NCBI RefSeq assembly: GCF_004353825.1
Contig: NZ_SMNA01000007.1
Coordinates: 1-64,000, forward strand
From: Occultella glacieicola
GTDB taxonomy: Bacteria > Actinomycetota > Actinomycetes > Actinomycetales > Beutenbergiaceae
DNA: 64,000 nt
Direction of reading: 5' to 3'
Below, in pieces: positions 22,401 to 59,046 of the stretch. The position numbers and the translations under genes were made by a program. Within the stretch, counting starts at the first letter, position 1; every line of letters begins with the position of its first letter. A model generated the notes under the pieces. That model was not told the origin of the DNA. It saw only the letters and a list, made by a program, of their open reading frames with translations, and did no database searches.

Positions 22401-23177
22401 ATGGGCCTGCTCGACCGACTTCTCGGCCGCGAGCCGAACGAATACGACCCGTACCGCGGGAACCAGCAACCCGGCGGCGCGCCGTACGGTCGGCAGCAGG
22501 CCTACGGGCAGCAGCCGGCCGGTCCCGCCTACGGGCAGCAACCTGCCGGTCCCGCCTACGCACAGCAGCCCGCCGGTCCCGCCTACGGGCAGCAGCCCAC
22601 GGGTCCCGGCCACGACGGGCGGCCGGCCCAGCGCACCCCGGACGAGGTGGCGATCGACCGCTACCGGTACCTGGTCCGGACCGCACCGCCGGAGGCGGTG
22701 GAACAAGCGCACGCCGAGGCGTTCTCGAGCCTCACACCCGCGCAGCGGCGCCAGGTGCTCGACGACCTGGGTGCGGCCGTGCCCCCGACGGAACGGGCGC
22801 CGTCGGACTCCCCACAGGACCTCGCCCGGATGGCCACCCGGGCCGAGATGCGCGAGCCGGGCACGGTCGAACGCACGCTCGGCGGCCAGCGCGGCGCCGG
22901 CCCCGGGATGGGCGCCATGATGGGATCGAGCCTGCTCGGAACCGTCGCCGGTGTGGTGATCGGGTCGGCGGTCGCGAACGCGCTCTTCGGGCCGGCGTTC
23001 GGTGACCCCACCCAGGCCGCACCGCAGGACGCGGGTGCCGACGGCGGCGCGGATGGCGGTGGTGGTGACGCTGGTGCCGGCGATGCGGGCGGGTTCGACG
23101 CCGGTGCCGGCGACGGCGGCGGACTGGGCGACTTCGGGGGCGGTTTCGCCGACTTCGGGGGCTTCGGCGACTTCTAG
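22401..23177 (+). CDS. Conserved hypothetical protein with QQPAGPAY repeats and a Gly/Asp/Phe tail
   Basis: RBS AAGGA; YRYLVRTAPPE core. Confidence 0.7.
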   Translation: MGLLDRLLGREPNEYDPYRGNQQPGGAPYGRQQAYGQQPAGPAYGQQPAGPAYAQQPAGPAYGQQPTGPGHDGRPAQRTPDEVAIDRYRYLVRTAPPEAVEQAHAEAFSSLTPAQRRQVLDDLGAAVPPTERAPSDSPQDLARMATRAEMREPGTVERTLGGQRGAGPGMGAMMGSSLLGTVAGVVIGSAVANALFGPAFGDPTQAAPQDAGADGGADGGGGDAGAGDAGGFDAGAGDGGGLGDFGGGFADFGGFGDF

Positions 23178-24826
23178 GTGACGAGCCGGGGCTCGGCCGT
23201 CGGCAGGTCGTCCGTCCAGCTCGGCTGCTCACCGATACCGAAGCCGTGCCGCTCCCAGGTGCGCCACCACGACGACGCACCCGACGGCAGGGTTGCCGGG
23301 TCATCCTCCTCGAGGAGCTCGCGCAGCCGGAGCTTGAGCTCGACCAGCTCGGACATGGGCGGCCGAGGCGTGGCCGGGTCATGGACCGGGTTGAACATCT
23401 CGTCCTCGGTGGTCCAGATGAGTCGGCGAAGGTTGATCACGTGGCGGGTGTGCTCATGGACCTCGGGAGGGGCCTCGGTGTAGAGGTCCCGGGCGCGCAG
23501 GTAGCCGTAGTCCATCGAGATGGAGACCAGGCCCGGCTCCACCGTGAGCAGGTCGTGGATGTCCAGCTCGGGCTGGATGATCATGGCGCCGGCGGACTTG
23601 GCCCGCCGGATCTCGTCGAGCTGGATCTCGTCGGTCATAATGCCGAAGCCACTGCGCATCACGATCTCGAGCATGTCCTTGTCCCCGTAACCGCCGTCCC
23701 ACGGAAGCCCCACGGGCGAGGCGACCACCGCGTAACAACGGGTCACCCCGAGTTGGGACACCGCGATCTCGACGGGCAGGGACTCTCGCGCGCCGCCGTC
23801 GACGTAGTGCTGGTCGTTCAGGCGGACCGGCGCGAACACGGCCGGGATGGCGCACGAGGCCCGGATCGCGTCGAGGAGCTCGACCGGGTCCTCCTCCGGC
23901 AGGAGCTCGTCGGTGCGATCGTGCATGCGGCCGAGCTCGTCGACGTAGCGCAGTTCGCCGGACTCGAGCGCCACCACGGCCGCCCGGAACCGGACCCCGG
24001 AGTCGGCGAGCCGCGCGGCGTCGAACAGCCGTGGGTCCGAGATCCGGTCCACGAGCGGGCCCGGGCGGAAGGCGGCGCGCTCGGTCTGGGCACCGTTCAG
24101 GATCGACTGCACGTCGGTGCTGGTCCGTCCGGCCTCCCAGATCGTGGCGAGGGTGTCCAGGACGTTGCCCGAGGTCCACAGCGGCGAGTGCTCGGGCGGG
24201 GTCTGGTCGTGTTCGACGGTCTGCACCGCCGTCTGGCTCGCCGTCGCCGGATCGGTTGCGGCCTCGCCGTGATCGTTCTGGCGGGCGGTGAAGCGTTCCA
24301 CGGCCTTGATCGGCCCCTGCAGCACGGAGGTGAGGCTGGCGGTCAGGGAGGTGCGGTTGCCGGGTCGGTGCCGCAGCGCCATGACCTTGCGCCAGGTCGG
24401 CATGTGCTCGCGCAGTTTGGTGAACCAGGGCAGCTCCTCGAACAGGTCCGAACTGCTGCGCATCCCGAGCCAGAGCCGGCGCAGGTCCTCCACTGCCTCG
24501 CGCTGGCCGGCCTGGTCCGGGTACTGGGCGAGCATGCCGGTCAGGATCGAGCCCGCCGACGTGCCGGTCATCACCTGGGGTGCGAAGCCGTCCTGCTCGT
24601 AGAGGTAGGTCAGGGCGCCGATCTGGAAGCTGGACCGGGCGCCACCACCGGAGGCGACGAGCCCGATGACCTCCTCCTGGTGCGGTTCCGGGTCCGGTTC
24701 CGGTTCTGGCTCCGGAGCCGAAGCCGGTCCGGGGTCGGGCTCGGGTAGGTCCGGAACCGGCTCACCGCCGAGCAGGCGGATCAGCCCATGGCGCAACTTC
24801 GTGGCCACCCCTGGTGCACCGGTCAT
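23174..24826 (-). CDS. Patatin-like phospholipase
   Basis: GGGAR, GTSAG nucleophile and DGG motifs; start overlaps the upstream paralog's stop. Confidence 0.88.
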   Translation of the reverse strand: MTGAPGVATKLRHGLIRLLGGEPVPDLPEPDPGPASAPEPEPEPDPEPHQEEVIGLVASGGGARSSFQIGALTYLYEQDGFAPQVMTGTSAGSILTGMLAQYPDQAGQREAVEDLRRLWLGMRSSSDLFEELPWFTKLREHMPTWRKVMALRHRPGNRTSLTASLTSVLQGPIKAVERFTARQNDHGEAATDPATASQTAVQTVEHDQTPPEHSPLWTSGNVLDTLATIWEAGRTSTDVQSILNGAQTERAAFRPGPLVDRISDPRLFDAARLADSGVRFRAAVVALESGELRYVDELGRMHDRTDELLPEEDPVELLDAIRASCAIPAVFAPVRLNDQHYVDGGARESLPVEIAVSQLGVTRCYAVVASPVGLPWDGGYGDKDMLEIVMRSGFGIMTDEIQLDEIRRAKSAGAMIIQPELDIHDLLTVEPGLVSISMDYGYLRARDLYTEAPPEVHEHTRHVINLRRLIWTTEDEMFNPVHDPATPRPPMSELVELKLRLRELLEEDDPATLPSGASSWWRTWERHGFGIGEQPSWTDDLPTAEPRLVT

Positions 24827-26928: not shown

Positions 26929-26980
26929 GGAAGGTTCCACCCACGACGCGCTGGTCAGGTGCGGGCCGGGCGCTGACGAT
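26929..26980 (+). promoter_or_regulatory. GGAAnnTTCC-ACC operator promoter (site 1) between the divergent patatin and WXG genes
   Basis: GGAAGGTTCC-ACCC, CTGG at +13, GACGAT after 36 nt. Confidence 0.7.
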
Positions 26981-27105: not shown

Positions 27106-28023
27106 ATGAGCACTGTCACCCACGGCGGCGACGTCGATGCCCTGATCGCGACCGCGAGGGCCTACGCCGCCGGGGCGGAGCAGATCCGCACGATCTGCGT
27201 GCGTATCACGGTCGGACTGTGCCACACGATGATCTGGAACGGGCCGGACGCCCTGGCCGCACGCACCGCGTGGGAGCACGAATGGTCGCCGGCTCTCATG
27301 CGGGCGTCCGGCGCCCTGGTCGACGCCGGCCTGGAACTGGTCGGCCAGGCCGAGGACCAACTCCGCGCGAGCGGGGCGGACACGGCGGGATCGGGAAGCG
27401 GGGCCGGTGTTGCCGGCGCGACCACTGCCGCTGGTGTGTCCGGTGCGGCCGGGCCGGGCGACGGTGATGCCGGTACGGCCGTACCGGGCCGGTTCGGTGA
27501 CCTGCGGACGAACCTCGAGCGGCTACGTTCGTTCGCCATGAGCCTGCCGGAACTGGCGCTGCAGGCTCGCGCGCTGCGAACCTTCGGCGCCGTGGCGAAC
27601 AATCTCGCCACCGCGGACGTCGCGCGGGAGTTCGTCGAGGCAGGGCTCACCGGCGCCGAGCGTGTGGGCCTCGACGGACTGTCCGTCGTTGGCACTGTCC
27701 TCGACGCGGACGGGTTCGTGACCGGCATCGAGGAGCGGGACGTGACAGCGATCGTCCAGAACGGCACCTCCCTCGGCATCACCGCGGCAGCCCCGTGGAT
27801 CGGCTCGGCAGTCTCGGGCGGGGTGGGCGTGGCCTGGGGTGTCGGGAGCCTCGCCGGCGACATGATCTACGACGGTATCCAGGGCACCAGGTACAACGAG
27901 ATCCTCACCGAGATGACCGACGGGGCGTTCCGTGACAACGGGGCTCTCGGCATCGCACAGGTGCCAGGTCTCCTGGCGTTCGCCGCCTGGGAGGCGCTGA
28001 CCGAGGACGACACCGGCGAGTGA
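27106..28023 (+). CDS. WXG100-like protein with a C-terminal hydrophobic extension
   Basis: WNGPDA, LVGQAEDQLRAS, Gly/Ala linker, Gly-rich hydrophobic C-terminal domain; RBS GAGGA. Confidence 0.72.
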   Translation: MSTVTHGGDVDALIATARAYAAGAEQIRTICVRITVGLCHTMIWNGPDALAARTAWEHEWSPALMRASGALVDAGLELVGQAEDQLRASGADTAGSGSGAGVAGATTAAGVSGAAGPGDGDAGTAVPGRFGDLRTNLERLRSFAMSLPELALQARALRTFGAVANNLATADVAREFVEAGLTGAERVGLDGLSVVGTVLDADGFVTGIEERDVTAIVQNGTSLGITAAAPWIGSAVSGGVGVAWGVGSLAGDMIYDGIQGTRYNEILTEMTDGAFRDNGALGIAQVPGLLAFAAWEALTEDDTGE

Positions 28024-32116: not shown

Positions 32117-32971
32117 ATGCTACGCGTGACGCTGCGGGGGTCTGGGGTGCCGACGGTGGTGCTCGGCAGCGGCGACACCCTGCTCGTGGGCCGGTCCCCG
32201 GACAGTGCGCTGCCCGAGGTCGACGCGGACACCCAACTGCATCTGACCGCCCTCGCGCTGCCCCGCGTCGCGCCGCACGTCTCCCGCGTCGTCGGCGAGG
32301 TGCAGGTCGGCGACGAGGTCGTGCGGCTGCGCTGGCGCGGCAGCACCGGGGCCCAGCTCTCCTCCCTTTTCGACGCCCCCGGTGGGGCCCGCCGGGTCGC
32401 CCTCTCCGAGGGCATGGCCGCCCTGTTGGACGAGGGCGAGAACCACCTGCTCATCCTGCGCGGGCGCCAGACGCCCACGGGCTCCTTCACCGACCTGGTG
32501 CTCGTCGTGGACGTCGAGGAGGTCCGCGACGAGCCCGCGCCGGTGCCGCTGGTCGCCGAGGGTGATCCCGACGGCGCCGCGACCGCCGACGCCCCGCACC
32601 TGGAGCGCTGGTCGCGCGAGTGGTACGTCGCGCTGGCCCTCGCCGAGCCCTGGCTGACCGGCGCGGACGACTACCCCCGGCCGCCGTCGAACCGGGAGAT
32701 CTACGAGCGGATCCTGCACTGGCGCGGCCACGCCTGGAACCTCGAACGCGCGCAGCGCGTGGACGACGCGATCCGCTCCGTGGCCCGCCTCGCGTTCGGC
32801 CCCGACGACGACCCGTTCACCGTGACGGAAGGCCGCGTGCAGAACGTGCGGTTCGCCGTCGGGCGCCGTGCCGCGGAGGTACGACTGGTGACGACGGCGG
32901 ACCTCGAGGCCGTCCACGAGGCCCGGTCAAGGGGCGCCGGTCTCAATCCCGAGGCTCCGACCGCGCCATAG
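32117..32971 (+). CDS. Probable FHA-like plus C-terminal HTH regulator
   Basis: LLVGR...PHVSR beta-rich N-domain; ALAEPWL...PPSNREIYERI...RVDDAI helical C-domain. Confidence 0.5.
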   Translation: MLRVTLRGSGVPTVVLGSGDTLLVGRSPDSALPEVDADTQLHLTALALPRVAPHVSRVVGEVQVGDEVVRLRWRGSTGAQLSSLFDAPGGARRVALSEGMAALLDEGENHLLILRGRQTPTGSFTDLVLVVDVEEVRDEPAPVPLVAEGDPDGAATADAPHLERWSREWYVALALAEPWLTGADDYPRPPSNREIYERILHWRGHAWNLERAQRVDDAIRSVARLAFGPDDDPFTVTEGRVQNVRFAVGRRAAEVRLVTTADLEAVHEARSRGAGLNPEAPTAP

Positions 32972-32980: not shown

Positions 32981-32986
32981 GTTCGA

Positions 32987-33481: not shown

Positions 33482-34042
33482 TCAGTGACCGACGACGCCC
33501 TGGATCTCCACCATCACCTGGATCGCGGCGATCGTCTCCCGCTTCTTCAGGTTCTCCACCTTCTCCGGCCCGCCCAGCGAACGCAGCGGCACGAAGGTGA
33601 ACGACTGATCGTAGGGCAGCTCACCGTGCGCCTCCACGGCCCGTGGGAAGATGCCCCAGTTCAGCGTCCGGGACAGGTAAAACGTCCCCGCAATCTTCAG
33701 CATCTCTAGGAACCCGTTCAGTTCGCTGTTGAGACCAGCGACACGACCCTCACGGTACTTGATGCCCACGAAACCGACGCTCGGCTCCCACGTGATGAGG
33801 TCGGCAAGCCCCGTCACCATGATGGGAATCGCTATGCCGTCCCCCTGGGTCTTGCCGATGCATTCGGCCAGCTCCGTCTCGTACACGGCGGGGTTGATCA
33901 CGCGTAGGAAGCCCGATGCGAAGGTGCCGTACCCGTAGGTCTCCCACAGGTCGATCACGTCGTCGGGAACACGGCCCCGGTAGGCCTCGATGACCCCCGG
34001 TTCAACCGGTCCGTGCGGCACGAAGTCCGTAATCTCGATCAT
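33482..34042 (-). CDS. GAD-like/DUF1851 (Tdi1-type) toxin immunity protein
   Basis: YRGRVPD-LWETYGYG-F-GFLRVINP; F-FVPL-LGG-EKVENL; visibly lower GC than the flanks. Confidence 0.82.
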   Translation of the reverse strand: MIEITDFVPHGPVEPGVIEAYRGRVPDDVIDLWETYGYGTFASGFLRVINPAVYETELAECIGKTQGDGIAIPIMVTGLADLITWEPSVGFVGIKYREGRVAGLNSELNGFLEMLKIAGTFYLSRTLNWGIFPRAVEAHGELPYDQSFTFVPLRSLGGPEKVENLKKRETIAAIQVMVEIQGVVGH

Positions 34043-34051
34043 GGTCCCACC

Positions 34052-34238: not shown

Positions 34239-34415
34239 GACGACGACCCGTTCACCGTGACGGAAGGCCGCGTGCAGAACGTGCGGTTCGCCGTCGGGCG
34301 CCTTGCCGCGGAGGTACGACTGGTGACGACGGCGGACCTCGAGGCCGTCCACGAGGCCCGGTCACAGGGCGCCGGCCTCAATCCTGGGGCTCCGACCGCG
34401 CCGTAGCGGCGGAAC
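34239..34415 (+). repeat. 177-bp direct repeat, copy 2
   Basis: Duplicate of the 3' end of gene 32117 and the start of the operator. Confidence 0.95.
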
Positions 34416-34463
34416 CTTCCACCCCCTGTTCGCTGGCTTGCGCGGCGGCGGCGCTCCTAGCGT
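34411..34463 (+). promoter_or_regulatory. GGAAnnTTCC-ACC operator promoter (site 2)
   Basis: GGAACCTTCC-ACCCC, CTGG at +13, TAGCGT after 37 nt. Confidence 0.8.
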
Positions 34464-34509
34464 CGAAGGCAGGTCGGCACCTCGTCGACGAAGCCTTCAG
34501 GAGGACACC

Positions 34510-34788
34510 ATGACGTACGACCGCTCGCAGTTCTACGGCATCGACCCCGAGTACTCCCGGGACGCGTCCCGGAACATGGATACCGGCGCCCAGGATCTCA
34601 AGTCCATGGTCGGCAACGTCTCGGCGATGCTCGACTCCGTGCTCTGGATCGGGCCCGCCGCGGCCAAGTTCAAGCAGGACTGGGACGGCTCCCTGCGGCC
34701 CGAGCTCGAGGCCGCCACCGACTCCCTCAGCGAGAACGCCGCCGAGCTGCGCCGCCGCGCCGACCTCCAGGACGAGGTCTCCAGCTGA
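34510..34788 (+). CDS. WXG100-family protein (92 aa)
   Basis: Central WIGPAA, helical hairpin pattern, RBS AGGAGG. Confidence 0.88.
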   Translation: MTYDRSQFYGIDPEYSRDASRNMDTGAQDLKSMVGNVSAMLDSVLWIGPAAAKFKQDWDGSLRPELEAATDSLSENAAELRRRADLQDEVSS

Positions 34789-34810: not shown

Positions 34811-34863
34811 GGAAGTTTCCACCCCCACGGCGCTGGCCCCGGCCACCACCGGCTGCCTAGCGT
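34811..34863 (+). promoter_or_regulatory. GGAAnnTTCC-ACC operator promoter (site 3)
   Basis: GGAAGTTTCC-ACCCC, CTGG at +13, TAGCGT after 37 nt. Confidence 0.8.
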
Positions 34864-34959
34864 CATCGACCAGCAGCACCGGCGGCACCGGCAGGACCGG
34901 CAGAGTCCGCTGGGCCGCACCCCACACCAGACCAGACCGACAGCAGAAGGGAGTTTCCG

Positions 34960-36354: not shown

Positions 36355-36624
36355 ATGAGCACCACCGTCTACGGGATGGACATCACCGCCGCGCGCGACC
36401 TGGTCAGGGTGATGAACTCCGACGCCGACGTGATCAACCAGCTGACGGCCCAACTGACCCAGCAGCTCGAGGCGACCCCCTGGTTCGGCCCGGACGCGCA
36501 GCGGTTCACAAGTGACTGGCAAGGCCAGTACGTGCCCGCCCTGCAGAACGTGGTCCAGGCCCTCCAGGAGAACGCGACGATCCTCAGCCAGCAGGCCGAC
36601 GACCAGGAGCGCGCCTCCTCCTGA
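36355..36624 (+). CDS. WXG100-family protein (89 aa)
   Basis: YGMDI, WFGPDA, LSQQADDQERASS; RBS AAGGA. Confidence 0.9.
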   Translation: MSTTVYGMDITAARDLVRVMNSDADVINQLTAQLTQQLEATPWFGPDAQRFTSDWQGQYVPALQNVVQALQENATILSQQADDQERASS

Positions 36625-42080: not shown

Positions 42081-42132
42081 GGAAGTTTCCACCCCACCTC
42101 TCCTGGACCCTGCCCACCCCGCCTCATAGCGT
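42081..42132 (+). promoter_or_regulatory. GGAAnnTTCC-ACC operator promoter (site 4)
   Basis: GGAAGTTTCC-ACCCC, CTGG at +13, TAGCGT after 36 nt. Confidence 0.8.
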
Positions 42133-46751: not shown

Positions 46752-49700
46752 TGGCACGGTCTGAGAAGGCGCGGAGCAGGCGCGCTCCGTTGGGCTGGTG
46801 GCGTTCACGCACCGCGGGGCGCGGCCGTGACCGCGGCTTCGTGGAGGCCGGCGTGGCCGCCGCCGGCGGGCTGCTCGTGGTCGGCGCCGTGGTCGGCAAC
46901 GGCGTGGCCGCCGCGCTGATCGACATGTCCGACGGGCAGACCTGGCTGGCCGACGACGACGGCAGGGTGGTGCAGATCAACCCGGCCACCGGCCAGCCCG
47001 AGCGACGCCTGATCATCGGCGAACCCGGCAGCGAACTCGAGGTCTCCCAGCGGGACGGGCAGCTCATCGTCACCGAGCTGACCACCGGGATGATCACGGC
47101 CGTCGACCTCGCCAGCCTGGTTGCCAGCGGGGCCCGCGGGGTGGATCCCGACACCGAGGTGCTCGTCGGCGGCGGCCAGGTGGTCCTGGTCGACCTCGAA
47201 CCGGGCACCGTCCGGGCCGTGGACCCGCTCACGCTGACCGACCTCGGCCGCCCGTTCCGCACCGACGACCTGGCCGACGCCGTGATCGACGACGAGGGGT
47301 CGGTCTGGATCATCGGCATCGACGGCACCCTCACCGAGCTCGACTACTCCGCGGATGCCGCCGAGTTCGTCACGTCCGTGTCCCGGCCGGTCGCCGGGGC
47401 GGGGCCGCAGTCCCGGTTGGTGCCGCACGCAGCCGGCGTGACCGTGTTCGCCCCGGACCAGGGGTCCGTGGTGCAGGCGGGCGCCGGGCGGGACCTCGCC
47501 GTCAGCGTCGCCGCCCTCGAGGGCACGGTCGCCGAGGCGGACTTCGCCCCTGCCGACCTGGTGCCCGCCTCCGCCGAGGACCTCGGCAGGGTGTTCCTGC
47601 TCGCGGACGGGCGGATCCTGAACGTGGACGTCGGCGCCCTCGGCTGCGAGCGGCCCGGCAGCCCGGCGGTGTTCGCCGGCAAGGTGTACGTGCCCTGCCT
47701 GGGCACCGGGCGGGTCATCGTCCTGGACTCGGGCGGTGCCCGGGCCGGGGCGGACATCGTGGTCCCCGGTGGCGGCGACCCCACGCTCGTGGTCGACGAC
47801 GGCCGGCTCTACGTGAGCACGCCGGCCGACGGCCGGATCGTGGTCGTCCAGCCGGACGGCTCCACCCAGATGGTCGACGTCGCCGCCGCCGAGGTCCCGG
47901 TCCAGGACGTGGACCGGCCCACCCCGGTGCGGCCCACGGTTCCCGTGGTGGCCCCGCCGGTGAACGTCCCGCCGAACACGCCCACGCCCCCGGTGAACAC
48001 GCCGCCCGGCGTCCCGAACCCTCCGGAGACGCCGGACGACCCGACGCCGCCGGACACCCCGGGTACCGACCCCACGAACAACCCCGGCGGAGGCGACGAC
48101 AGCGACGACGACGGCACCGGGGGCAACAGCAACGACGCCGACAAGGCGCCCTCCGGGGTGGCCGCCCAGCTGCGTGCGGACGGGACCGTGGCGCTGACCT
48201 GGACGCCGCCGGTGACCACCCCCGAGACCGTCCGGGTGACCGGCTCGGACGGCGTCACCGACCGGGAGGTCGCCCCGGATGCGACCTCACTGGACGTCCC
48301 CGGCCTGTCCTGCGGCTCGATGATCACCCTCACCGTGACCGCCACCCACGCCGACGGCAGCACCGGCGTCGGCTCGACCGAGATCCGCACGGCGGACTGC
48401 GCAACCGGGGTGAACCCGGCCGACCTGGCGCCCACCGACGTGCAGGCGTCCCTGCGCGCGGACGAGAGCGTCCGGGTCACCTGGACGGCCCCCGTCGAGA
48501 CCCCGAACGAGATCCGGGTGACGAGCTCGGACGGCACCGCCAACGAGGTGCTCGCCGCCGGCGCCACCACCGTGGACCTGGCCGGACTCACCTGTGGACG
48601 GACCCTCACGTTCACCGTGACCGCCCACCACGACGGCGGGATCAGCGGCACCGACTCGGCTACCGCGGCGACCGTCGACTGCCCGGTGGACCCTGCCGAC
48701 CTCGCCCCGACCGGGGCGAGCGCGGCCCTGCGCGCCGACGAGAGCGTGCGGGTGAGCTGGACCGCGCCCGTGGTCGCGCCGAACGACTACCGGGTCACCA
48801 GCTCCGACGGCGCCGCCAGCCAGATGGTCGCCGCGGGTGCCACGTCGGTGGACCTGCCCGGTCTCACCTGTGGCCGGACGCTGACCTTCACGATCACCGC
48901 GAACCATGAAGGCGGTCAGACCGGTCAGGCGAACGCGAGTGCCCGCACCGCCGACTGCCCGACGACGCCGCCCCCCACGGTGGAGGCGACCGCCCCCACG
49001 AACGTGACCGCGACCCTGAACGGCAACAACACCGTCACCGTGTCCTGGACCGCGGCCTCCTCCGGCGCGGACGAGTACCGGGTCTCACCGAACGGCGGCG
49101 CGGCCACGTCCGTGACGGGGACCTCCGCGACACTGACCCTGGCCTCGGGCACCTACACGTTCACCGTCACCACCCAGCTCGACGCCACCAGCGCGACCTC
49201 CGCCGCGAGCAACGCGGTGACGGTGGCGGGGGCGCCCGGGGCCCCGGGGACGCCGGCCATCGGTGGCGTCACGAACGACGGCTCCCGGGTGCAGGCCAAC
49301 GCGTCCTGGGCCGCCGCCCCCGCGAACGGTGCCGCCGTCACCTACACGGTCACCTACACCGGCGGCTCGCTCACCACGACGAACACGTCGACGCCGATCA
49401 CGATCAACTGCTCCGGTGCGAGCCCGTGCGCCGCCGGCGGCACCCTGACCGTCACCGTCACCCCGTCGAACGCGATCGGCACCGGTCCCGCGTCGTCGTC
49501 GTCCGCGTCCGTGCCCGCGCCGCCGCCCCCGCCGCCGGCGAACGGGGACTCGGTGGTCAGTCGCATCCAGTGGTCGGAGCCCGGCCTCTACGACGAGAAC
49601 ATCCCGTTCAGTGTCTGGGTCTCCGCACCCGCCGGGTGGGCCGCGCACACCGGGACCTGCACCCTGTACGTCTCCGGCCCGGGGATCAACGACTCCCGGG

Positions 49701-50131
49701 TGATCGCGTGCAACTCGGGAGGGTCCGTGTACGGGAACGCCGCCCGCGGAATGGCCACGATCACCGCCTACGTCGTGGCCACCGGCGCGGGTGTCAACGC
49801 GACCTCGGCGACGGTCAGCGAGCAGTTGCCGTCCCGGGGCGACTGGGCGCATTGCACCCTCAGCCCGCGCATCTGCACCCAGCCCAACACCTTCGACCCC
49901 GACGATCCCGACGTCGAGGTGACCCCGATCCCGTGGACCCCGCCCGAGGTGCCCAGCCCGCCCGTGCTCGCGGCCGGTTTCGGCCTGCTCGGCGCCGCCG
50001 GCCTGCTGCGCACCCAGCGCCGCCTCGCCGACGTCCCCACCCTCACGACCACGGACGGCGCCGCGCCCACCCCGGCCGCGACCGCCGTCGTCCATGAACG
50101 CCCCGACTCGACCGGAGACCAGCCCCGATGA
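46751..50131 (+). CDS. Large surface protein: TM, beta-propeller-like region, Pro linker, about 5 FN3 repeats, C-terminal hydrophobic segment
   Basis: Start overlaps the EssC stop; three similar AP-V-A-LRAD-V-WT-P...GL(S/T)CG-TVTA-H...DC repeats. Confidence 0.82.
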   Translation: MARSEKARSRRAPLGWWRSRTAGRGRDRGFVEAGVAAAGGLLVVGAVVGNGVAAALIDMSDGQTWLADDDGRVVQINPATGQPERRLIIGEPGSELEVSQRDGQLIVTELTTGMITAVDLASLVASGARGVDPDTEVLVGGGQVVLVDLEPGTVRAVDPLTLTDLGRPFRTDDLADAVIDDEGSVWIIGIDGTLTELDYSADAAEFVTSVSRPVAGAGPQSRLVPHAAGVTVFAPDQGSVVQAGAGRDLAVSVAALEGTVAEADFAPADLVPASAEDLGRVFLLADGRILNVDVGALGCERPGSPAVFAGKVYVPCLGTGRVIVLDSGGARAGADIVVPGGGDPTLVVDDGRLYVSTPADGRIVVVQPDGSTQMVDVAAAEVPVQDVDRPTPVRPTVPVVAPPVNVPPNTPTPPVNTPPGVPNPPETPDDPTPPDTPGTDPTNNPGGGDDSDDDGTGGNSNDADKAPSGVAAQLRADGTVALTWTPPVTTPETVRVTGSDGVTDREVAPDATSLDVPGLSCGSMITLTVTATHADGSTGVGSTEIRTADCATGVNPADLAPTDVQASLRADESVRVTWTAPVETPNEIRVTSSDGTANEVLAAGATTVDLAGLTCGRTLTFTVTAHHDGGISGTDSATAATVDCPVDPADLAPTGASAALRADESVRVSWTAPVVAPNDYRVTSSDGAASQMVAAGATSVDLPGLTCGRTLTFTITANHEGGQTGQANASARTADCPTTPPPTVEATAPTNVTATLNGNNTVTVSWTAASSGADEYRVSPNGGAATSVTGTSATLTLASGTYTFTVTTQLDATSATSAASNAVTVAGAPGAPGTPAIGGVTNDGSRVQANASWAAAPANGAAVTYTVTYTGGSLTTTNTSTPITINCSGASPCAAGGTLTVTVTPSNAIGTGPASSSSASVPAPPPPPPANGDSVVSRIQWSEPGLYDENIPFSVWVSAPAGWAAHTGTCTLYVSGPGINDSRVIACNSGGSVYGNAARGMATITAYVVATGAGVNATSATVSEQLPSRGDWAHCTLSPRICTQPNTFDPDDPDVEVTPIPWTPPEVPSPPVLAAGFGLLGAAGLLRTQRRLADVPTLTTTDGAAPTPAATAVVHERPDSTGDQPR

Positions 50132-51111
50132 CCGAGAACCCCCTGGCCCCCACCGAGGCGGACGTCGCCCGGTTCCGCCTGCTCCACGACCAGGTGGTCG
50201 ACGCCGTGTCCGGCGCCCTGCAGGGCAAGCGGCCGGTGATCGAGCTCGCCACCGTGTCCCTGTTCGCGGGCGGGCACGTGCTCCTCGAGGACGTCCCCGG
50301 AACTGGCAAGACCACGCTGGCCCGGGCCATCGCCGCGGCCCTCGGCGGCTCCTCCCGGCGGATCCAGTTCACCCCGGACCTGCTGCCGGCCGACGTCACC
50401 GGCACCTCCGTGTTCGAGCCCGGCACCGGCGAGATCAGTTTCCGGCCCGGTCCGGTGTTCACGAACGTGCTGCTCGCCGACGAGATCAACCGGGCCGCCG
50501 CGAAGACCCAGTCCGCGCTCCTGGAGGTGATGGCCGAGCGCACCGTCACCGTCGACGGGATCGGCCACACCGTGCCGGACCCGTTCGTGGTGATCGCCAC
50601 CCAGAACCCGATCGACCTGGACGGCACCTACCGGCTCCCGGAGGCCCAGCTCGACCGGTTCCTGGTCCGGATCACGCTCGGCTACCCCGACGTCGAGCAC
50701 GAGCTCGCCGTGCTGCGGCCGGGGTCGCGCGCCGGAGTGGTCGAGGAGGTCCCCGAGGTCACCACCCCCGAGGCCGTGGCCGCCGCGTCCCGGCAGCTGC
50801 GGCACCTGCATGTCGCCGAACCGATCCTCGCCTACATCCGCGCCGTCGGGGCAGCCACGCGCGCGGACGACCGGCTCCGGCTCGGCGCGAGCACCCGGGC
50901 CCTGCGCGGCCTGGTCGCCGCCACCCAGGTCCACGCCGCCGCCCAGGGCCGCCACTTCGTGGTCCCCAGCGACGTGCAGCGCCTCGCCGGCCCCGTGCTC
51001 GTCCACCGCCTCGTGCCGACCCGGGACGCCCTGCTCGCGGGGGAGAGCACCGAGGCCGTGGTGGCCGACGCCGTCGGCAGCGTGGAGGCGCCGCGCCCGG
51101 TGCCCGCATGA
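50128..51111 (+). CDS. moxR: MoxR-family AAA+ ATPase
   Basis: EDVPGTGKT, RIQFTPDLLP, LLADEINR, ATQNP and LPEAQLDRF motifs. Confidence 0.95.
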   Translation: MTENPLAPTEADVARFRLLHDQVVDAVSGALQGKRPVIELATVSLFAGGHVLLEDVPGTGKTTLARAIAAALGGSSRRIQFTPDLLPADVTGTSVFEPGTGEISFRPGPVFTNVLLADEINRAAAKTQSALLEVMAERTVTVDGIGHTVPDPFVVIATQNPIDLDGTYRLPEAQLDRFLVRITLGYPDVEHELAVLRPGSRAGVVEEVPEVTTPEAVAAASRQLRHLHVAEPILAYIRAVGAATRADDRLRLGASTRALRGLVAATQVHAAAQGRHFVVPSDVQRLAGPVLVHRLVPTRDALLAGESTEAVVADAVGSVEAPRPVPA

Positions 51112-51168
51112 GGCTGGACCAGCCGCCGGCTCCCGATCCGGTTCTCGCCCAGACCGGCCCTCCTCGAC

Positions 51169-51288: not shown

Positions 51289-51340
51289 TCACGTGCGGTG
51301 GGATGGCCGGACGGAGCCATCGCTTGCTGGGGTCGGTCCG

Positions 51341-52510
51341 GTGCGGCTGACCGGGCGGGGGTGGGCCGTGCTCATCTCGACGGCGGCGCTGCTCGGGTTC
51401 GGGCTGTGGGCGAGGTACCCGGGTCTCGTCGGGCTCGGCGCCGTCCTCGCGGTCGCCCTGGGGTGCGCGCTCGTGACCGTGCTGGTGCCCGCGCCGCTGC
51501 GGATCCGGCGACGGGTCCGCCCGCCGCGGGTGGCCAGGCTCGAGGAGGCCTCGGCGCACGTCGAGGTCACGAACGCCTCGACCTGGCTGGCGCAGTCGGT
51601 CACCGGGCACGACCTGGTGGGCGGTCGGCGGACCCCGTTCCTGGTGCCGCGGATGGCGCCCGGGGCGACCGTGAGCACCGAGGTTCCGATCCCCACCACC
51701 CACCGCGGCGTCATCGGCTTCGGTCCGCTGACCCTGCACCGGTTCTCCTTCCTCGACCTGCTCGAGGTCCGCCAGGAGCACGGGGACCGGGCCTCCGTAC
51801 TCGTCGAGCCCCGGATCCTGGACGCACTCGGCCTGCCGGCCGGGGCGCGCCGCGGGCACGTCGGCGCGGACGAGCGGATCGCCCACGGCGGCACCGACCT
51901 GGTCGGGCTGCGCGAGTACGTCGCCGGGGACGACCTGCGCCGACTGCACTGGGCCACTAGCGCGCGCCGGGCGACCCTGATGGTCCGTGAGGACGCCGAC
52001 CCCTCCGCGCCGCACCTGACCGTGCTCCTCGACGACCGTGCCGACTCGTACGCCGGTGCCCACGACGCCGCCCTCGACGGTGAGGGTTTCGAGGAGGCCG
52101 TCGACGTCGCCGCCAGCCTGCTCACCGCGGCCGCCGGCGTCGAGAGCCCGGCCCGCGTGGTCACCATCGGCGGTGGTCTCGACGAGCAGATCCCCGCGCC
52201 GGCGCCCGCGGCCGGTCCGGCCGGGCTGGACCCGCACGTGCTCGGCGCCCTCGCCCGGCTCGAACGGTCCGACGGCGGGCACGGCTCCGGCCTGTTCGCG
52301 GGCTCCCCAGACGTGCTCGCCGTGATCACCGGTCCGAACAGCGACCTCGGCGACCTGCTGCTCACGGCGTCCGGGGCGCCGTCGGGCGTCGTGCTGGTGG
52401 TGGATCCGCGGCCCGAGGCCCTCGTCTCCGCCCAGCAGGGCGTGCTGGTCCTGCGTGGCCCGCGCGCCGAGGAACTCGTCCACGGCTGGCGGACGGCGGT
52501 GGCCCGATGA
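51341..52510 (+). CDS. DUF58 (vWA-related) MoxR partner
   Basis: LREYVAGDDLRRLHWATSAR-LMVRE, FEEAVDVAAS, N-terminal TM pair. Confidence 0.9.
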   Translation: MRLTGRGWAVLISTAALLGFGLWARYPGLVGLGAVLAVALGCALVTVLVPAPLRIRRRVRPPRVARLEEASAHVEVTNASTWLAQSVTGHDLVGGRRTPFLVPRMAPGATVSTEVPIPTTHRGVIGFGPLTLHRFSFLDLLEVRQEHGDRASVLVEPRILDALGLPAGARRGHVGADERIAHGGTDLVGLREYVAGDDLRRLHWATSARRATLMVREDADPSAPHLTVLLDDRADSYAGAHDAALDGEGFEEAVDVAASLLTAAAGVESPARVVTIGGGLDEQIPAPAPAAGPAGLDPHVLGALARLERSDGGHGSGLFAGSPDVLAVITGPNSDLGDLLLTASGAPSGVVLVVDPRPEALVSAQQGVLVLRGPRAEELVHGWRTAVAR

Positions 52511-54915
52511 TCCGGTTCGCCACGGCCGCCTGGTCCGCGCTCGTGCTGGCGCTGGCCACGCTCCCGCTCGCCGCCGGGTACTCCTCGCCGGTCGCCGCCG
52601 GGGTCCTGATCGGCTGCGCGATCGTGCCGTTCGGCATCGCCGCCCTGGGGCGGGTGGCCAGGGTCGGGCGCGGCTGGGTGGCCGTGGCGGGCACGGTACT
52701 CGCCGTCAGCGCGGCCCTGATCCTGCTCGACGGCGTGGAGGCCGAGGCCCAGGCACAGCCCGGGTGGCGGGCCAGCCCCGCACTGAGCCTGCTCGGGCCG
52801 CTCATCGACTCCGTGCCGCGGCTCCTCACCGCGCCACGCCCGGCCCCGGCCGACGTCGGCTACCTGGTACCGACGGCGTTACTCGTCTGGATCGTCGCGC
52901 TCGGTGTGGCCGTAGTGGCGGTCGGGCGCGCCCGGGCGACCGCGGCGCCGCTCGTCGGCGCGGTGGCCCTGCTCGTCGCCGGCGGCCTCCTGACCGCCGG
53001 GCGTGGGGATGCCACCGGCTGGATCGCCCTGGCCACCGCGGTGGTGCTGCTGCTCGGCTGGGTGCTGCTGCCCTCGCAGGCGCGGGCGTCGTCGCGGGTG
53101 GGTGGGGATGCGGACCCGGGCGGGGCCGGCGGCGGGACCCGTCCCGGCCTCTCGGGAGGCGGCCCCGACGGGTCGACCGGCGCCGCGCGGCGCCGCGTGC
53201 TGGTGCCCGCGGTCGCGGCCGTGATCCTCGGGTCCTTCGCGCTCACGGCGGTGGCCGTGCCCACCTCCCGGTCCTTCGAGCCGCGCACGCTGGTGCCGCC
53301 GCCGGAGCTGCCCCTGGCCGCCACGAACCCGATCCCCAACCTGGCCCTCTGGAACGCCCGGCCGAATTTCCCGCTGCTGAGCGTCAGCCCGGACGGTGCG
53401 AGGCTGCCGGAGCGGCTCACGGTCGCCGCGCTGCCGGATTTCGACGGCGCCGCCTGGACCATCGACGCCCGGCTGCGCGCAGTCGGGGTCGTCGACGAGC
53501 CCGACCTGCAGCCCGGCACCCGGCAGCGGGAGGTCGCCTACGTGCTCGCCGACGCCGCGCTCGCCGGCGTGTGGGTGCCGTCCGCCGGGATGGCCGCGGC
53601 GGTCTCCGGAGCGGACGTGCTCATGGACACCGACACCGGCGTCCTGGTGGCCCCCGACGGGCTCGGCAGCGACCCGGTCTCGGTGCGTGCCCTGGTGGAC
53701 GCGCCAACCGACGCCGAGATCGACCGGGCCGGGACGCCGATGGCCGAGGTCGCCGCCCGGTACCTGGAACTGCCCCGGATCCCGGCGTCCCTGCGTGAGG
53801 AGTCCGTCGCGCTGACGGAGGGCACCCACTCCCGTTGGGAGCAGGCGCTCGCGATCGCCGAGGGTGTGCGGGGCGAGCGAACCCTTGACGTGGGGGCACC
53901 GTCGGGATCGTCCTACGGGCGCATCCAGGAGTTCCTCTTCCTGCCGGAGGCCGATGGCGGCCAGGTCGGCACCTCCGAGCAGTTCGCCGCGTCCTTCGCC
54001 GTGCTCGCCCGGGCGGCCGGCCTGCCCACCCGCCTCGTGATCGGCTTCGACCTCACCGAGGCCGTGGCCGCGGCGGACGGTTCGGTGACGGTCACCGGCG
54101 ACGACGCCCGCATGTGGGCCGAGGTCTACTTCGCGCGCGCCGGCTGGGTCGCGGTCGACCCGAGCCCGGCCACCAGCATCGACACCGGCGACCTCCCGGA
54201 ACCGCCGACGGGCGAGGACCAGCCGGACCGTCCCGAGGACGTCGGCGCCGAGGACGATCAGGACGCCGAGGAGAACGTGGCCGAGCCCGGTGACGACGCC
54301 GACGGCCGGACCGGAATGAGCGTGGCCACGGGCCTGACCCTGCTCGCCGGGCTGGCGTTTCTCGGGGTGCTGGCCGTGGTCGCGCTGGCCATCGCCCGCG
54401 CGGTGCGCCGGCGCCGGTGGCGCGCCGCCGGGGCGGTGGGTGCCTGGGCCCTGGTGCTCGACGCGGCCGTGCTCGCCGGCCGGCCGGTGCCGCGCTCCAG
54501 TGCCGCACCGGAGGCGGCGCGCGCGTTGGCCGGCGCTGCCGAGACCGGACATTCCGCGCCGGACCGGAGCCCGGTACGTTCGGTCTCGGCGGCCCCGGAG
54601 GATCGGGGAACGGCCGCGCTGATGCTGGCCGAGCGCGCCGAGCGCGCCGCCTTCGGACCACAGCCACGCGCGGCGGGGAGCACCGCCGTCGGGCATTCGG
54701 CCCCAATCGGAGCACCAACCGAGGCGACGTCCGACTGGGAGTTGGCCACCGCCGTCGAGCGTGACCTGCGCGCGGGTGCGAGCACGTGGCGACGCGCGGT
54801 GTGGTGGGTCTCGCCGGCCGTGCTCAGGGGCCGTAGGGCCTCCGGTCAGGACGACCGGATGCGTGGCGAAAAGGCGGACCCGGTGGGTCGCCGTGAAAGT
54901 CAGGGTGACGAATGA
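52507..54915 (+). CDS. Polytopic transglutaminase-like (TgpA-type) protein with a degenerate catalytic triad
   Basis: Multiple TMs; GTSEQFA, ARAAGLPTRLVIGF, RMWAEVYF and GWVAVDP motifs. Confidence 0.88.
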   Translation: MIRFATAAWSALVLALATLPLAAGYSSPVAAGVLIGCAIVPFGIAALGRVARVGRGWVAVAGTVLAVSAALILLDGVEAEAQAQPGWRASPALSLLGPLIDSVPRLLTAPRPAPADVGYLVPTALLVWIVALGVAVVAVGRARATAAPLVGAVALLVAGGLLTAGRGDATGWIALATAVVLLLGWVLLPSQARASSRVGGDADPGGAGGGTRPGLSGGGPDGSTGAARRRVLVPAVAAVILGSFALTAVAVPTSRSFEPRTLVPPPELPLAATNPIPNLALWNARPNFPLLSVSPDGARLPERLTVAALPDFDGAAWTIDARLRAVGVVDEPDLQPGTRQREVAYVLADAALAGVWVPSAGMAAAVSGADVLMDTDTGVLVAPDGLGSDPVSVRALVDAPTDAEIDRAGTPMAEVAARYLELPRIPASLREESVALTEGTHSRWEQALAIAEGVRGERTLDVGAPSGSSYGRIQEFLFLPEADGGQVGTSEQFAASFAVLARAAGLPTRLVIGFDLTEAVAAADGSVTVTGDDARMWAEVYFARAGWVAVDPSPATSIDTGDLPEPPTGEDQPDRPEDVGAEDDQDAEENVAEPGDDADGRTGMSVATGLTLLAGLAFLGVLAVVALAIARAVRRRRWRAAGAVGAWALVLDAAVLAGRPVPRSSAAPEAARALAGAAETGHSAPDRSPVRSVSAAPEDRGTAALMLAERAERAAFGPQPRAAGSTAVGHSAPIGAPTEATSDWELATAVERDLRAGASTWRRAVWWVSPAVLRGRRASGQDDRMRGEKADPVGRRESQGDE

Positions 54916-55505
54916 GGGATCGGGCCCAGGACGCCAGTGCCGAACTCGAGGCGTGGGTCGGAGCGTTCGGCCACACCATCGGGATCGCGCTCGAACAAGC
55001 GATCGTCGCGGTGACCAGTCGGCTGCCCGCGGGGGACATCGTCGGCGTCGGCGTCGCGACAGATGCGGACGCCACGTCGATCGTCGCGCTCGCCAACTCG
55101 CGCCAGAACCTCGACAGGATGATCGCGGAGGAGCCCCAGTTCGCGGTCGATTCCACGTGGCACCTGGGCGAGTGGGACATGGACGTGACGCAGGTCGACG
55201 CGGATGATCCCTTGGCGCCGGTGCGCGCCGAGGCAGACCGGGTGAAGCGGCTCATCACGTCTCCGGGCGACGGTCGGGCGCCCTCCCAACACCTCGGCGA
55301 GTTCCGAGCGGCTCTCTGGGACGCCATCGCGCACGCGCTGGCGCAGTCCGCGACGCACGGATTCTTCGATCGGTGGCCGAGTGCCAAGCGGGTGTTCCTG
55401 CCGCTCGATGCCGACGTCTCCGAGGAACGGATCGCCGCCTGGAACACGCCGTTCAATCGTCCCGAAGACCTGGGCGAGCTCCGGGAGTTCCTTCAGCTCG
55501 ACTAG
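54912..55505 (+). CDS. DUF4303-like protein
   Basis: ATGA coupling to the upstream gene; ALANS...WHLGEWD...GFF...FN pattern. Confidence 0.6.
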   Translation: MRDRAQDASAELEAWVGAFGHTIGIALEQAIVAVTSRLPAGDIVGVGVATDADATSIVALANSRQNLDRMIAEEPQFAVDSTWHLGEWDMDVTQVDADDPLAPVRAEADRVKRLITSPGDGRAPSQHLGEFRAALWDAIAHALAQSATHGFFDRWPSAKRVFLPLDADVSEERIAAWNTPFNRPEDLGELREFLQLD

Positions 55506-57170: not shown

Positions 57171-58943
57171 TCAGCGACAGAGCGTGTCGGTGGAGCCGGC
57201 TTCCAGGCCGGTCTCGATGAGGGCGTAGCCCACGACGGCGTAGCACTCGCCGGTCGCGTCCGGGTCGAGGCCCTCGACGACGAACTCGTCCGCGTCGGGC
57301 GTGAGTTGGCGGAGCACGGTGGGAGGCGAGCCGTCGGCCGGGACGCTCACGACGAGGAGGTAGTCGACCTCGGTCGCGGGCGGAGCCCAGGTGAGGAGCA
57401 CCGACGTGCCCTGCGGGGTGAGCACGGCGTTGACCGGTGCCAGGTCGGGGTTGCCGACGGTGGGTTGCGGCGGCGCGTCACCCGTCTGGACGTCGGTCGG
57501 GTCCACCGGCACCACCGCGTCGGTCTCCGTCGGCGTCGGGTCCGGTTCCTCCTCGCCGCCGAGCAGCGCGGACCCGATTCCGAATGCCGCGCCGACCAGC
57601 AGCGCGCCGCCGACGAACGCCACGATCCGGCGCCAAGTGGTCCCGGACCCACCGCCGGGTTCGGCGGGGGCGGCGTCGGGTGCCGCGGGCTCCGGATCCG
57701 GAGCCAGGCCGGTGGCGTCGTCGTCGACGGGGGTGGGCACCGGCTGGCGCTGGACGTGGGCGAGCACGGACGGGGCGAGTGGGGACGGCTGCGGCGCGGG
57801 CTCGGGCATCGCACCGGGCGAGGCGGCCATCGGGGCCTCTGCAGCGGACACGGCCGAGACGGCCGGTGACGAGGACTCACCGGCTGCGGTCGCCGGTGCT
57901 GCTGCGGCTCCCGCGGCCGTGACCGGCGCAGGGGTGGTGGACGACGTTGCCCCGGCCGCCGCCCCGGCCGACTCCGGATCCCAGGACCGGTCCTCGGTCC
58001 GGATCGAGCGCAGTCGCTCCAGCGCTTGTGCGGCAGTGGGGCGCCGCTCGGGGTCGGGGTGCAGGCCGGCCTCGATCAGGTCGTGCAACCCCGCGGGCAG
58101 GTCGCCCGAGTCCAGTGGGCGGCGCGCCCCGGTGCGGACCCGGCGCAGGTAGGACAACGCCGTGTCGTCGTGGGGGTCGAGCGCGGCGAACGGGGCGCGG
58201 CCGTCGAGGAGCGTGAACAGGGTGGAGCCGAGCGACCAGACGTCGTCCGCCTCGGTCGGGGACACGCCGTCGAGCACCTGGGGCGAGGCGTGCCGGTAGC
58301 TGAACCGCTCCACGGACGCGGTGTGACCGGCATCCGCCATCCGCGCGATCCCGAAGTCGCTGAGCACGTAGGACGTGGGCAGCAGCAGGACGTTCTGCGG
58401 CTTGACGTCCCGGTGCAGCACCCCGCGGGCGTGCGCGAACGCGAGGGCGTCGGCCACCGCGGTGCCGGCGGCCACCACCTCCGAGACCGGCAGCGCGCCG
58501 TGCGCACGGACCCGGTCGTGCAGCGAGCCGAGGTCGTGGAAGTCCATGATCAGGCAGGGGTCGCCCGCGGACGTCGTGGTGGTGTCCAGCACGTTCACGA
58601 TGTGTGGATGCTGGCGGCCCAGCGACACGGTGATCGCGAGTTCCCGCTCGAACCGGGCCGCCGCCGACGGCTCCGCGGTGATCACCTTGATCGCGACGTC
58701 CCGGTCGAGGCTGTCCTGGCGAGCCCGGTACACGACGCTGTCCCCGCCGGTCGCGACCTTGACCAGGTGGGAGTAGCCCGCGACGGACACGGAGACCGCT
58801 CCATCCGCGCCGTGGCCGGGCGGCTCACCGCGGGGACTCGTCGCGTCGTTCGGGCCCGCCGGGCCGGGCCGGCGGCCGGACAGCGCGCCCACAGCCTCCG
58901 CGAGCGGGCGTGGGGCCGCTGGTGCCCAGTCGTCATCGGACAC
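57171..58943 (-). CDS. Membrane Hanks-type Ser/Thr kinase with an extracellular FN3-like domain
   Basis: VAIK, HRDVKPQN, DFG, DVWSLG, TM segment, LAPVNAV-LTWAPP. Confidence 0.92.
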   Translation of the reverse strand: MSDDDWAPAAPRPLAEAVGALSGRRPGPAGPNDATSPRGEPPGHGADGAVSVSVAGYSHLVKVATGGDSVVYRARQDSLDRDVAIKVITAEPSAAARFERELAITVSLGRQHPHIVNVLDTTTTSAGDPCLIMDFHDLGSLHDRVRAHGALPVSEVVAAGTAVADALAFAHARGVLHRDVKPQNVLLLPTSYVLSDFGIARMADAGHTASVERFSYRHASPQVLDGVSPTEADDVWSLGSTLFTLLDGRAPFAALDPHDDTALSYLRRVRTGARRPLDSGDLPAGLHDLIEAGLHPDPERRPTAAQALERLRSIRTEDRSWDPESAGAAAGATSSTTPAPVTAAGAAAAPATAAGESSSPAVSAVSAAEAPMAASPGAMPEPAPQPSPLAPSVLAHVQRQPVPTPVDDDATGLAPDPEPAAPDAAPAEPGGGSGTTWRRIVAFVGGALLVGAAFGIGSALLGGEEEPDPTPTETDAVVPVDPTDVQTGDAPPQPTVGNPDLAPVNAVLTPQGTSVLLTWAPPATEVDYLLVVSVPADGSPPTVLRQLTPDADEFVVEGLDPDATGECYAVVGYALIETGLEAGSTDTLCR

Positions 58944-58994
58944 GCGAACCCCCTCCCCGTTCCGGCGCCGCCGATCCCGGCGCACCTGGTTCCG

Positions 58995-59046
58995 AGGATA
59001 GGCGGTACGCCCCGAGCGCGAGGCGTGCCCGGCGGTGGAACGTTCC
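58995..59046 (-). promoter_or_regulatory. GGAAnnTTCC-ACC operator promoter (site 5)
   Basis: Minus strand GCGGAACGTTCC-ACCG, then TATCCT after 36 nt, upstream of the kinase. Confidence 0.75.

Follow-up and report, generated by a model that had tools for sequence, protein, structure and literature searches.

A conserved, phosphatase-free variant of the Esr-Esx design with an FHA-bearing type VII ATPase and a shared palindrome in Occultella glacieicola and other actinobacteria

Introduction

The Esr pathway induces Esx upon contact with Patescibacteria via threonine phosphorylation of an FHA protein (bioRxiv 10.64898/2026.09.08.750141). According to this preprint (also PMC13622651, Wang et al.), 40% of 3502 Esr pathways adjoin esx genes, fusions of EsrG with EccC occur, and the catalogue demanded the full set of Esr1 orthologues; how the phosphorylation of EsrG alters transcription is stated there as not known. 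In S. odontolytica, deletion of esrA2 left the export of EsxA/B near wild type and removed only AesA/B, and post-translational control was proposed for Esr2. Here we analyzed positions 1 to 64,000 of contig NZ_SMNA01000007.1 of Occultella glacieicola (hereafter the window), which contain a cassette of ten genes combining an Esr-like module with an FHA-bearing type VII ATPase and WXG100 genes, together with a palindrome, GGAANNTTCC, shared by the upstream regions of several of these genes. The cassette comprises an FHA regulator, two WXG100 genes, a WXG-led substrate, an EssC-like ATPase with ubiquitin-like and FHA domains, a propeller-FN3 protein, MoxR, DUF58, a transglutaminase-like protein and a convergent kinase. 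The general design of coupling sensing to secretion has already been published (bioRxiv 10.64898/2026.09.08.750141), and the operator of the cassette is the new element here; literature searches found no description of this operator or this cassette.

We compared at least 80 loci of FHA-bearing ATPases, at least 65 of which belong to the clade of the cassette and 15 to an outgroup. All locus counts given below are among the loci listed, and presence counts of the cassette genes use only the clade loci with enough flank (51 or 47).

The cassette shares with Esr a surface protein built from a propeller and repeats, MoxR, a DUF58/vWA protein, a transglutaminase-like protein, a kinase and FHA proteins beside Esx genes, as well as the fusion of FHA to EccC and a substrate that has a helical N-terminus, a glycine-rich region and a charged tail like AesB. 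EsrA, EsrB, EsrC, EsrD, EsrE and EsrG were all matched in the cassette, but the PP2C phosphatase EsrF was not. Neither EsrF nor the pseudophosphatase-FHA protein is present at any of the 65 clade loci, and the PP2C of the source genome lies at its canonical Esr locus. Whereas the Esr sensor has about 2000 aa, the sensors of the cassette are about 720-1150 aa long and have FN3 repeats without a Big_9 match. The cassette also differs from Esr by its separate ATPase clade, its convergent kinase and its defined operator. In Table S3 of the Esr work, the entries for O. kanbiaonis (two), O. aeris (two), N. lactea (two), Janibacter HTCC2649 (two) and M. luticocti (one) all represent the canonical locus (9/9), in a comparison that excludes three further Occultella and three Pseudactinotalea entries and the Esx-linked rows. 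Six other names from the clade, and also 'EccC', returned no rows in the portion of Table S3 covered; the cassette clade could be among its Esx-linked entries.

Among the named type VII secretion system (T7SS) subtypes, T7SSd is the nearest (Garrett, Higginson, Palmer 2024, PMC11217815). Both occur in Actinomycetota and have an FHA-bearing ATPase with a phosphothreonine pocket, WXG100 proteins, a kinase and a large Ig-like surface protein, which in T7SSd (TsdI) was proposed to be a conduit, and EccB, EccD and EssAB are absent in both. However, T7SSd has TsdH and no ubiquitin-like protein, whereas a weakly matched YukD-like domain appears to be fused to the cassette ATPase, and the main text on T7SSd, in the parts covered, makes no mention of MoxR, transglutaminase or fibronectin. 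The PFNA cluster of Bifidobacterium resembles the cassette in its core (pkb2, fn3, aaa-atp, duf58, tgm), with prpC and fha as optional members (PMC8430577, PMC6803598), but the passages searched in these articles contain no T7SS ATPase or WXG100 terms, and its gene order differs. The cassette resembles T7SSa (ESX-4-like) and T7SSb in its FtsK-type ATPase, which has three ATPase-like stretches, in its WXG100 proteins and in its weakly matched ubiquitin-like domain. Unlike in T7SSa, the ATPase bears an FHA domain and its loci have no EccB, EccD or MycP partners; unlike EssC of T7SSb with two FHA domains, it has only one and scores under the EssC cut-off.

Results

Conservation of the cassette

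The cassette is spread over several actinobacterial orders, with loci in Georgenia, Microbacterium, Cellulomonas, Xylanimonas, Knoellia, Nocardioides, Phytoactinopolyspora, Kibdelosporangium, Nakamurella and other genera, and it was found in all ten family relatives examined. WXG100 genes were present at 51/51 clade loci (at least one gene each, as the two queries cross-react), the substrate gene at 48/51 and the FHA regulator at 49/51, the other two genomes carrying the regulator elsewhere. The genes for FN3, MoxR and the transglutaminase-like protein were each found at 46 of 47 loci, DUF58 at 45 and the kinase at 43. The co-occurrence of these modules, named as a check in an initial annotation of the window, is real and extends as one cassette across many genomes. 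The same annotation had recognized no EccB, EccD or MycP at the locus, and indeed none of the three, nor a PP2C (tblastn with the PP2C of the source genome as the query) or a pseudophosphatase-FHA protein, occurs at any of the 65 clade loci. The cassette is thus a real, conserved and phosphatase-free variant of the Esr-Esx design.

From essC to the DUF4303 gene, stop and start codons overlap at every junction except moxR/DUF58, as previously described, where the gap of 229 nt (51112-51340) is a single-copy insertion; moxR and DUF58 abut in two of three same-genus genomes. The MoxR module is absent from all ten long outgroup loci. Among 12 further outgroup FHA-ATPases, seven lack the module and five sit in canonical Esr clusters, so the link between Esr and an ATPase is not unique to the cassette clade. 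When 50 cassette genomes, covering 50 of the 65 loci, were searched, EccB was found in 37 and an EccD-like match in 43, while seven had neither and one more had only a weak partial EccD match (completeness unreported). In Nocardioides-type loci (L073-L127), the cassette often lies next to clpX, clpP and trigger factor genes.

A palindromic operator upstream of cassette genes

In front of the WXG, essC and kinase genes, the palindrome GGAANNTTCC precedes a -10-like box at a constant spacing; the initial annotation had overlooked this shared operator and the likely transcriptional output. CGGAANNTTCCACC occurs six times in the 5.3-Mb source genome, and five of the copies are upstream of cassette genes (Table 1). 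Across the clade, GGAANNTTCCAC has 106 sites in the 65 loci, as opposed to 1.7 expected from shuffles, and none in the 15 outgroup loci. All but five of these sites (101/106) share the strand of a cassette gene and lie no more than 330 nt upstream of it, and the spacer between the operator and a TAGCGT-like hexamer is 34-35 nt in 60 of the 62 cases where the hexamer was found. Presumably, this hexamer is a -10 element, judging from its likeness to housekeeping actinobacterial promoters. An unbiased palindrome scan recovered GGAA-N2 in 36/51 clade loci. Searched genome-wide, the bipartite pattern is present in 15 of the 16 genomes that fully match the clade ATPase and in none of 45 others; the reversed control gave 0.

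The operator also accompanies genes outside the usual arrangement. In a rearranged locus (L110), a copy precedes a divergent FN3-moxR arm, and in the source genome a one-base variant lies before an unlinked WXG-led gene of 399 aa (contig C22:6086-7345, minus strand), whose product has a hydrolase-looking C-terminus and no Pfam match.

The FHA regulator

The regulator of 284 aa is more conserved than the ATPase (54-98% identity over 28 sequences). Its model from a 54-row alignment, with a pLDDT (predicted local distance difference test) of 90, contains five helices besides the FHA domain and the linker; the model without the alignment had a pLDDT of 33. The FHA fold matched 3poa with a Z-score of 11.0 over 93 residues (root-mean-square deviation 2.0), which upholds one half of the "FHA/HTH-like" assignment in the initial annotation, while the helix-turn-helix (HTH) half was confirmed by no library. 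Thr156 in the linker is present in 45/45 regulators. The homodimer model scored 0.63 against 0.00 for the best control, at a mark that 20/30 solved pairs and 1/23 single chains reach, and the runs share at least 72% of contacts with a pLDDT of at least 82. Residues 156-160 as well as R26 and 52-58 of the FHA pocket are in the list of interface residues. Phosphorylated Thr156 might dock in trans into the FHA pocket; the interface list gives the residues without their pairing.

The regulator is a distant homologue of the canonical Esr FHA protein of about 250 aa, labelled 'FHA_2' in the covered part of Table S3 (HHalign 64%, E-value 6.5e-5). In a 14-row alignment, the Thr at the corresponding position of this paralogue is invariant. 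By eye, the paralogue also has an HTH-looking motif, which the libraries did not confirm, and there are weak HTH_8/HTH_50 matches among the paralogues. A PDB sequence search with the regulator alignment gave no match, and a viral fold library yielded no further information about the C-terminal domain. Binding of the regulator to DNA is inferred.

The ATPase

The ATPase belongs to a group of 69 proteins with 45-88% identity, beyond which identity falls to 39% or lower; its nearest named relative is from O. kanbiaonis (88%). The first ATPase domain is intact, the second and third are degenerate, and R121, S135 and H138 of the FHA domain are invariant in 28 sequences. The NCBIfam scores were all below the cut-offs (EccCa 336/509, EccCb 238/347, EssC 455/778). 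An EsaB/YukD-like, ubiquitin-like domain appears fused at the N-terminus, albeit weakly supported with matches below the cut-off in 7/27 members (best E-value 3e-4); an Atlas search with residues 1-92 had a best score of 0.80. A tree built from the first ATPase domain, with no TsdC among its sequences, shows that the clade is monophyletic (100/100), lies within a wider actinobacterial group (99/95) and is outside the three T7SSa EccC sequences (100/99). The single T7SSb EssC forms a long branch of unsure placement. The phylogeny proposed as a check by the initial annotation hence places the ATPase in a separate clade. FHA-bearing ATPases are not confined to Bacillota, contrary to the view taken there, as they also occur in T7SSd and in the wider actinobacterial group. 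The source genome encodes a third, divergent FHA-FtsK protein (contig C16:353580-357419) that forms a long branch; no WXG100 gene was seen next to it.

The sensor arm and the kinase

The propeller of the FN3 protein was identified by PDB profile matches (Pizza6, E-value 1.8e-6) and its fn3 repeats by Pfam. Its likeness to the EsrA of the own canonical cluster is weak (HHalign 51%), and it is much shorter, without a Big_9 match. A C-terminal membrane anchor was considered as a universal sensor trait and dropped: by eye, it is present in Actinomycetales-type sensors and absent in Nocardioides. An FN3-like ectodomain had been assigned to the kinase; the Pfam scan of the window proteins, with no further search, gave no match for it.

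The transglutaminase-like protein matches Transglut_core (E-value 7e-17), and neither the catalytic Cys nor the catalytic His is present in the 36 homologues scored, out of 39 found. A stand-alone paralogue on contig C22 retains the catalytic Cys. Among 120 canonical EsrD homologues, 110 were scorable and none has the catalytic Cys. Loss of transglutaminase activity was considered as a distinctive trait of the clade and rejected, since the canonical EsrD homologues lack the Cys as well. The absence of Cys from all scored EsrD-like proteins casts doubt on the proposed covalent anchoring of the sensor.

WXG proteins, cargo and local insertions

The Pfam scan of 24 window proteins and the coordinates agree with the initial gene inventory and positions, including two patatins and an orphan immunity gene. 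Of the "four WXG100-like genes" reported, two are small with weak Pfam matches; the two longer ones (27106-28023 and 34960-36234) have only a WXG-like N-terminal hairpin and no Pfam match in the window copies, and weak WXG100 matches were found in 2/18 related long proteins scanned. No Pfam match to EsaA, EssA or EssB was found among the 24 window proteins (no genome-wide search was made). With a threshold of at least 50 bits, 8/51 clade loci have the 27106-type gene.

The substrate slot is variable. Here its product is glycine-rich with an acidic tail, whereas among nine Nocardioides-type substrates scanned, seven have a PG-binding domain and five an SLT-like domain (two above the cut-off), and one Microbacterium has a WXG-led hydrolase nearby. 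Antibacterial or wall-directed cargo would fit these sequences.

Patatin genes were found at 2/65 clade loci, the immunity gene and DUF4303 at 0/65. These genes are local passengers and not parts of the conserved system. Locus comparison ruled them out as core parts, together with HNH/DUF222, MFS, hydrolases, LuxR and Eis. One same-genus genome also has the patatin pair beside the cassette. A direct repeat of 193 nt with 94% identity (32792-32984 and 34227-34419) carries the 3' end of the regulator gene, and between its two copies lie the immunity gene and a deleted copy of the 34960 gene's 5' end; this insertion (32792-34419) is absent from three same-genus genomes. It also holds a frameshifted remnant that looks helix-hairpin-helix-like by eye. 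A short frame ending just before the start of the immunity gene may, judging by its resemblance, be the tail end of a toxin that was lost.

Table 1. Positions of the features in the window
Feature	Position	Strand	Remarks
Patatin-like genes, two in tandem	23174-26877		~71% alike in stretches
Operator GGAAGGTTCCAC	26929..26940	+	5' of 27106 gene
WXG-led accessory substrate candidate	27106..28023	+	hydrophobic helical C-terminus; patchy in relatives
EsrG-type protein (FHA, Thr156 linker, HTH-like helical part), predicted dimeric activator	32117..32971	+	
GAD-like/Tdi1_C orphan immunity gene	33482..34042	-	Pfam; 63% GC; local passenger
Operator GGAACCTTCCAC + -10-like TAGCGT	34411..34468	+	5' of first WXG100
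WXG100-like protein A (WIG)	34510..34788	+	Pfam WXG100 E 7e-4, below cut-off
Operator GGAAGTTTCCAC + TAGCGT	34811..34868	+	5' of substrate gene
Substrate slot gene	34960..36234	+	WXG-like N-terminus, Gly/Ser-rich linker, hydrophobic end, acidic tail
WXG100-like protein B (WFG)	36355..36624	+	Pfam WXG100 E 8e-3, below cut-off
Operator GGAAGTTTCCAC + TAGCGT	42081..42132	+	5' of essC
EssC-like ATPase, 1525 aa	42174..46751	+	FtsK_SpoIIIE x3 stretches, one FHA
EsrA-like sensor candidate	46748..50131	+	N-terminal hydrophobic segment, beta-propeller, FN3 repeats
MoxR AAA+ ATPase (EsrB-like)	50128..51111	+	Pfam
DUF58 membrane protein (EsrC-like)	51341..52510	+	Pfam
Polytopic pseudo-transglutaminase (EsrD-like)	52507..54915	+	Cys -> Ser, His -> Arg
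DUF4303-like gene, local insertion	54912..55505	+	Pfam
Membrane Ser/Thr kinase (EsrE-like)	57171..58943	-	VAIK, HRD, DFG motifs intact
Operator GGAACGTTCCAC	59035..59046	-	5' of kinase

Canonical systems in the source genome and a sister box

The source genome has a canonical T7SSa, with EccD, EccB, a mycosin and a WXG100 pair on contig C14 and a full-scoring EccC at the end of contig C21. It also has a canonical Esr cluster (contig C1:44747-63817) with PP2C, FHA proteins, a kinase, a Big_9/FN3 protein of 2036 aa, MoxR, DUF58 and a transglutaminase-like protein. The cassette in the window is accordingly a second system of each kind. The genome-wide Ecc search suggested by the initial annotation traced EccB, EccD, MycP and a true EccC to other places in the genome and none of them to the cassette locus. 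A lactate-racemase-like gene lies inside the C1 cluster, whose EsrD has neither the catalytic Cys nor the catalytic His.

A sister box, GGGGA-N4-TCCCC, was derived by eye and post hoc from the spacers after canonical FHA genes (7/30 loci), where it lies 24-25 nt before a -10-like hexamer. An unbiased palindrome scan beside the canonical FHA genes showed no enrichment, and the loose pattern was near chance locally (10 versus 6.6 of 30). The strict box has 62 sites in 28/61 genomes, as opposed to one site for the reversed control. Among 32 genomes searched for both, the box was present in 12/16 with a canonical FHA protein and 0/16 without. Out of 32 sites (30 loci), 12 are directly upstream of WXG100 genes and two of EsrA, while 18 had no query match. 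In the source genome, the box at C14:3700-3743 (minus strand), with its -10-like hexamer, lies upstream of the T7SSa WXG100 pair and may connect canonical Esr with the transcription of T7SSa. Both boxes have GGA-N4-TCC in common, and their distances to the hexamer differ by about one helical turn.

Discussion

We think that the cassette probably represents an Esr-like module equipped with a dedicated FHA-bearing ATPase of type VII and with WXG100 cargo, its genes being switched by the regulator via GGAANNTTCC. By analogy with the Esr preprint, the propeller-FN3 protein would sense a surface threat, and MoxR/DUF58 with the pseudo-transglutaminase would relay or scaffold the signal non-covalently. 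The kinase likely phosphorylates Thr156 of the regulator. The phospho-switched regulator, predicted to be dimeric, would then recognize the GGAANNTTCC palindromes that precede the WXG, essC and kinase genes, turning these genes on. Phosphorylation may also gate the ATPase via its own FHA domain, again by analogy with Esr. The WXG pair and the WXG-led substrate would be exported by the cassette ATPase without canonical EccB/EccD, possibly for defence or cell-wall remodelling. The trigger, the phosphorylation, the DNA binding and the secretion of the cassette are predictions.

Several observations weigh against this reading. The box could also be read by a host factor or by any factor that is passed on together with the cassette. 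The co-occurrence counts come from kin genomes and are not independent, and no operator was found in the window upstream of the regulator gene itself. The C-terminal domain of the regulator obtained no library support as a DNA-binding domain and no PDB match by sequence, Pfam HTH_8 matches only 2/14 paralogues (E-value 0.014), and the fold searches were filled by FHA-domain matches. The phosphorylated EsrG1 of S. odontolytica has a different architecture (PMC13622651). A locus of Micromonospora sonneratiae (L107) has the kinase, a divergent regulator, one WXG100 gene and the ATPase, but no sensor arm within 10 kb. Moreover, the frequency of EccB and EccD-like genes makes borrowing of canonical parts possible in most cassette genomes.

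According to the initial annotation, FN3, DUF58 and the pseudo-transglutaminase are structural secretion parts that replace EccB/EccD/EsaA rather than a sensor. The translational coupling of the sensor-arm genes to essC, the catalytically dead transglutaminase, the lack of EccB, EccD and MycP at 65/65 clade loci, the seven of 50 genomes without EccB and EccD (and the one with a weak partial EccD only) and the conduit role proposed for the large Ig-like TsdI (PMC11217815) would all agree with this arrangement. We nevertheless consider it rather unlikely, because the canonical cluster of the same genome has the module without an adjacent T7SS ATPase, related FHA-ATPases do without the module (10/10 long outgroup loci and 7/12 further ones), and the esrA2 deletion in S. 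odontolytica spared the export of EsxA/B and removed only AesA/B (PMC13622651). A kinase-FN3-MoxR-DUF58-transglutaminase-FHA set with Esx has already been described as Esr with the module as the sensor, and the claim that the MoxR module replaces the accessories is not supported in that form. The claim of a distinct T7SS subtype without the usual accessories fares better, in view of the separate clade, the loci without EccB, EccD and MycP, and the genomes devoid of both EccB and EccD.

Two other explanations concern the operator and the export. The box might be read by a host regulator or an alternative sigma factor, with the FHA protein acting only post-translationally on the ATPase, as the unconfirmed HTH of the regulator and the post-translational control proposed for Esr2 (PMC13622651) would allow. 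The box is, however, palindromic and confined to genomes with the cassette, the paralogous GGA-N4-TCC box tracks the paralogous FHA protein, and clustering of the non-core genes of the loci gave no other conserved regulator, all of which makes this explanation unlikely. It is quite improbable, too, that the ATPase works only with EccB/EccD/MycP borrowed from canonical T7SSa, the cassette being an add-on module for substrate and control. Although T7SSa is present in the source genome and most cassette genomes, it comes with a full-scoring EccC, a ubiquitin-like domain appears to be built into the cassette ATPase itself, and six isolate assemblies (completeness unreported) have the clade ATPase but no EccB.

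Beyond the cassette as an Esr-like module with its own ATPase and operator, we tentatively put forward a wider proposal, about which we have somewhat more doubt than confidence: FHA-helical EsrG proteins could be the missing transcription factors between Esr and Esx across Actinomycetes, forming phospho-Thr dimers that each read their own GGA-N4-TCC box (GGAANNTTCC in the cassette, GGGGA-N4-TCCCC in canonical systems, including T7SSa WXG100 genes), and the cassette could be a self-contained, phosphatase-free T7SS subtype secreting without EccB/EccD. The main value of our analysis lies in the operator and the candidate transcription factor. For the question of how Esr reaches transcription, stated as open, the locus supplies a candidate factor, a phosphosite and an operator, making an answer from sensing to Esx transcription testable. 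With the sister box, the prediction also reaches canonical Esr genomes, where it would allow Esx regulons to be listed from sequence. The cassette itself offers a compact model, in culturable environmental genera, of a type VII ATPase for which EccB/EccD may be dispensable.

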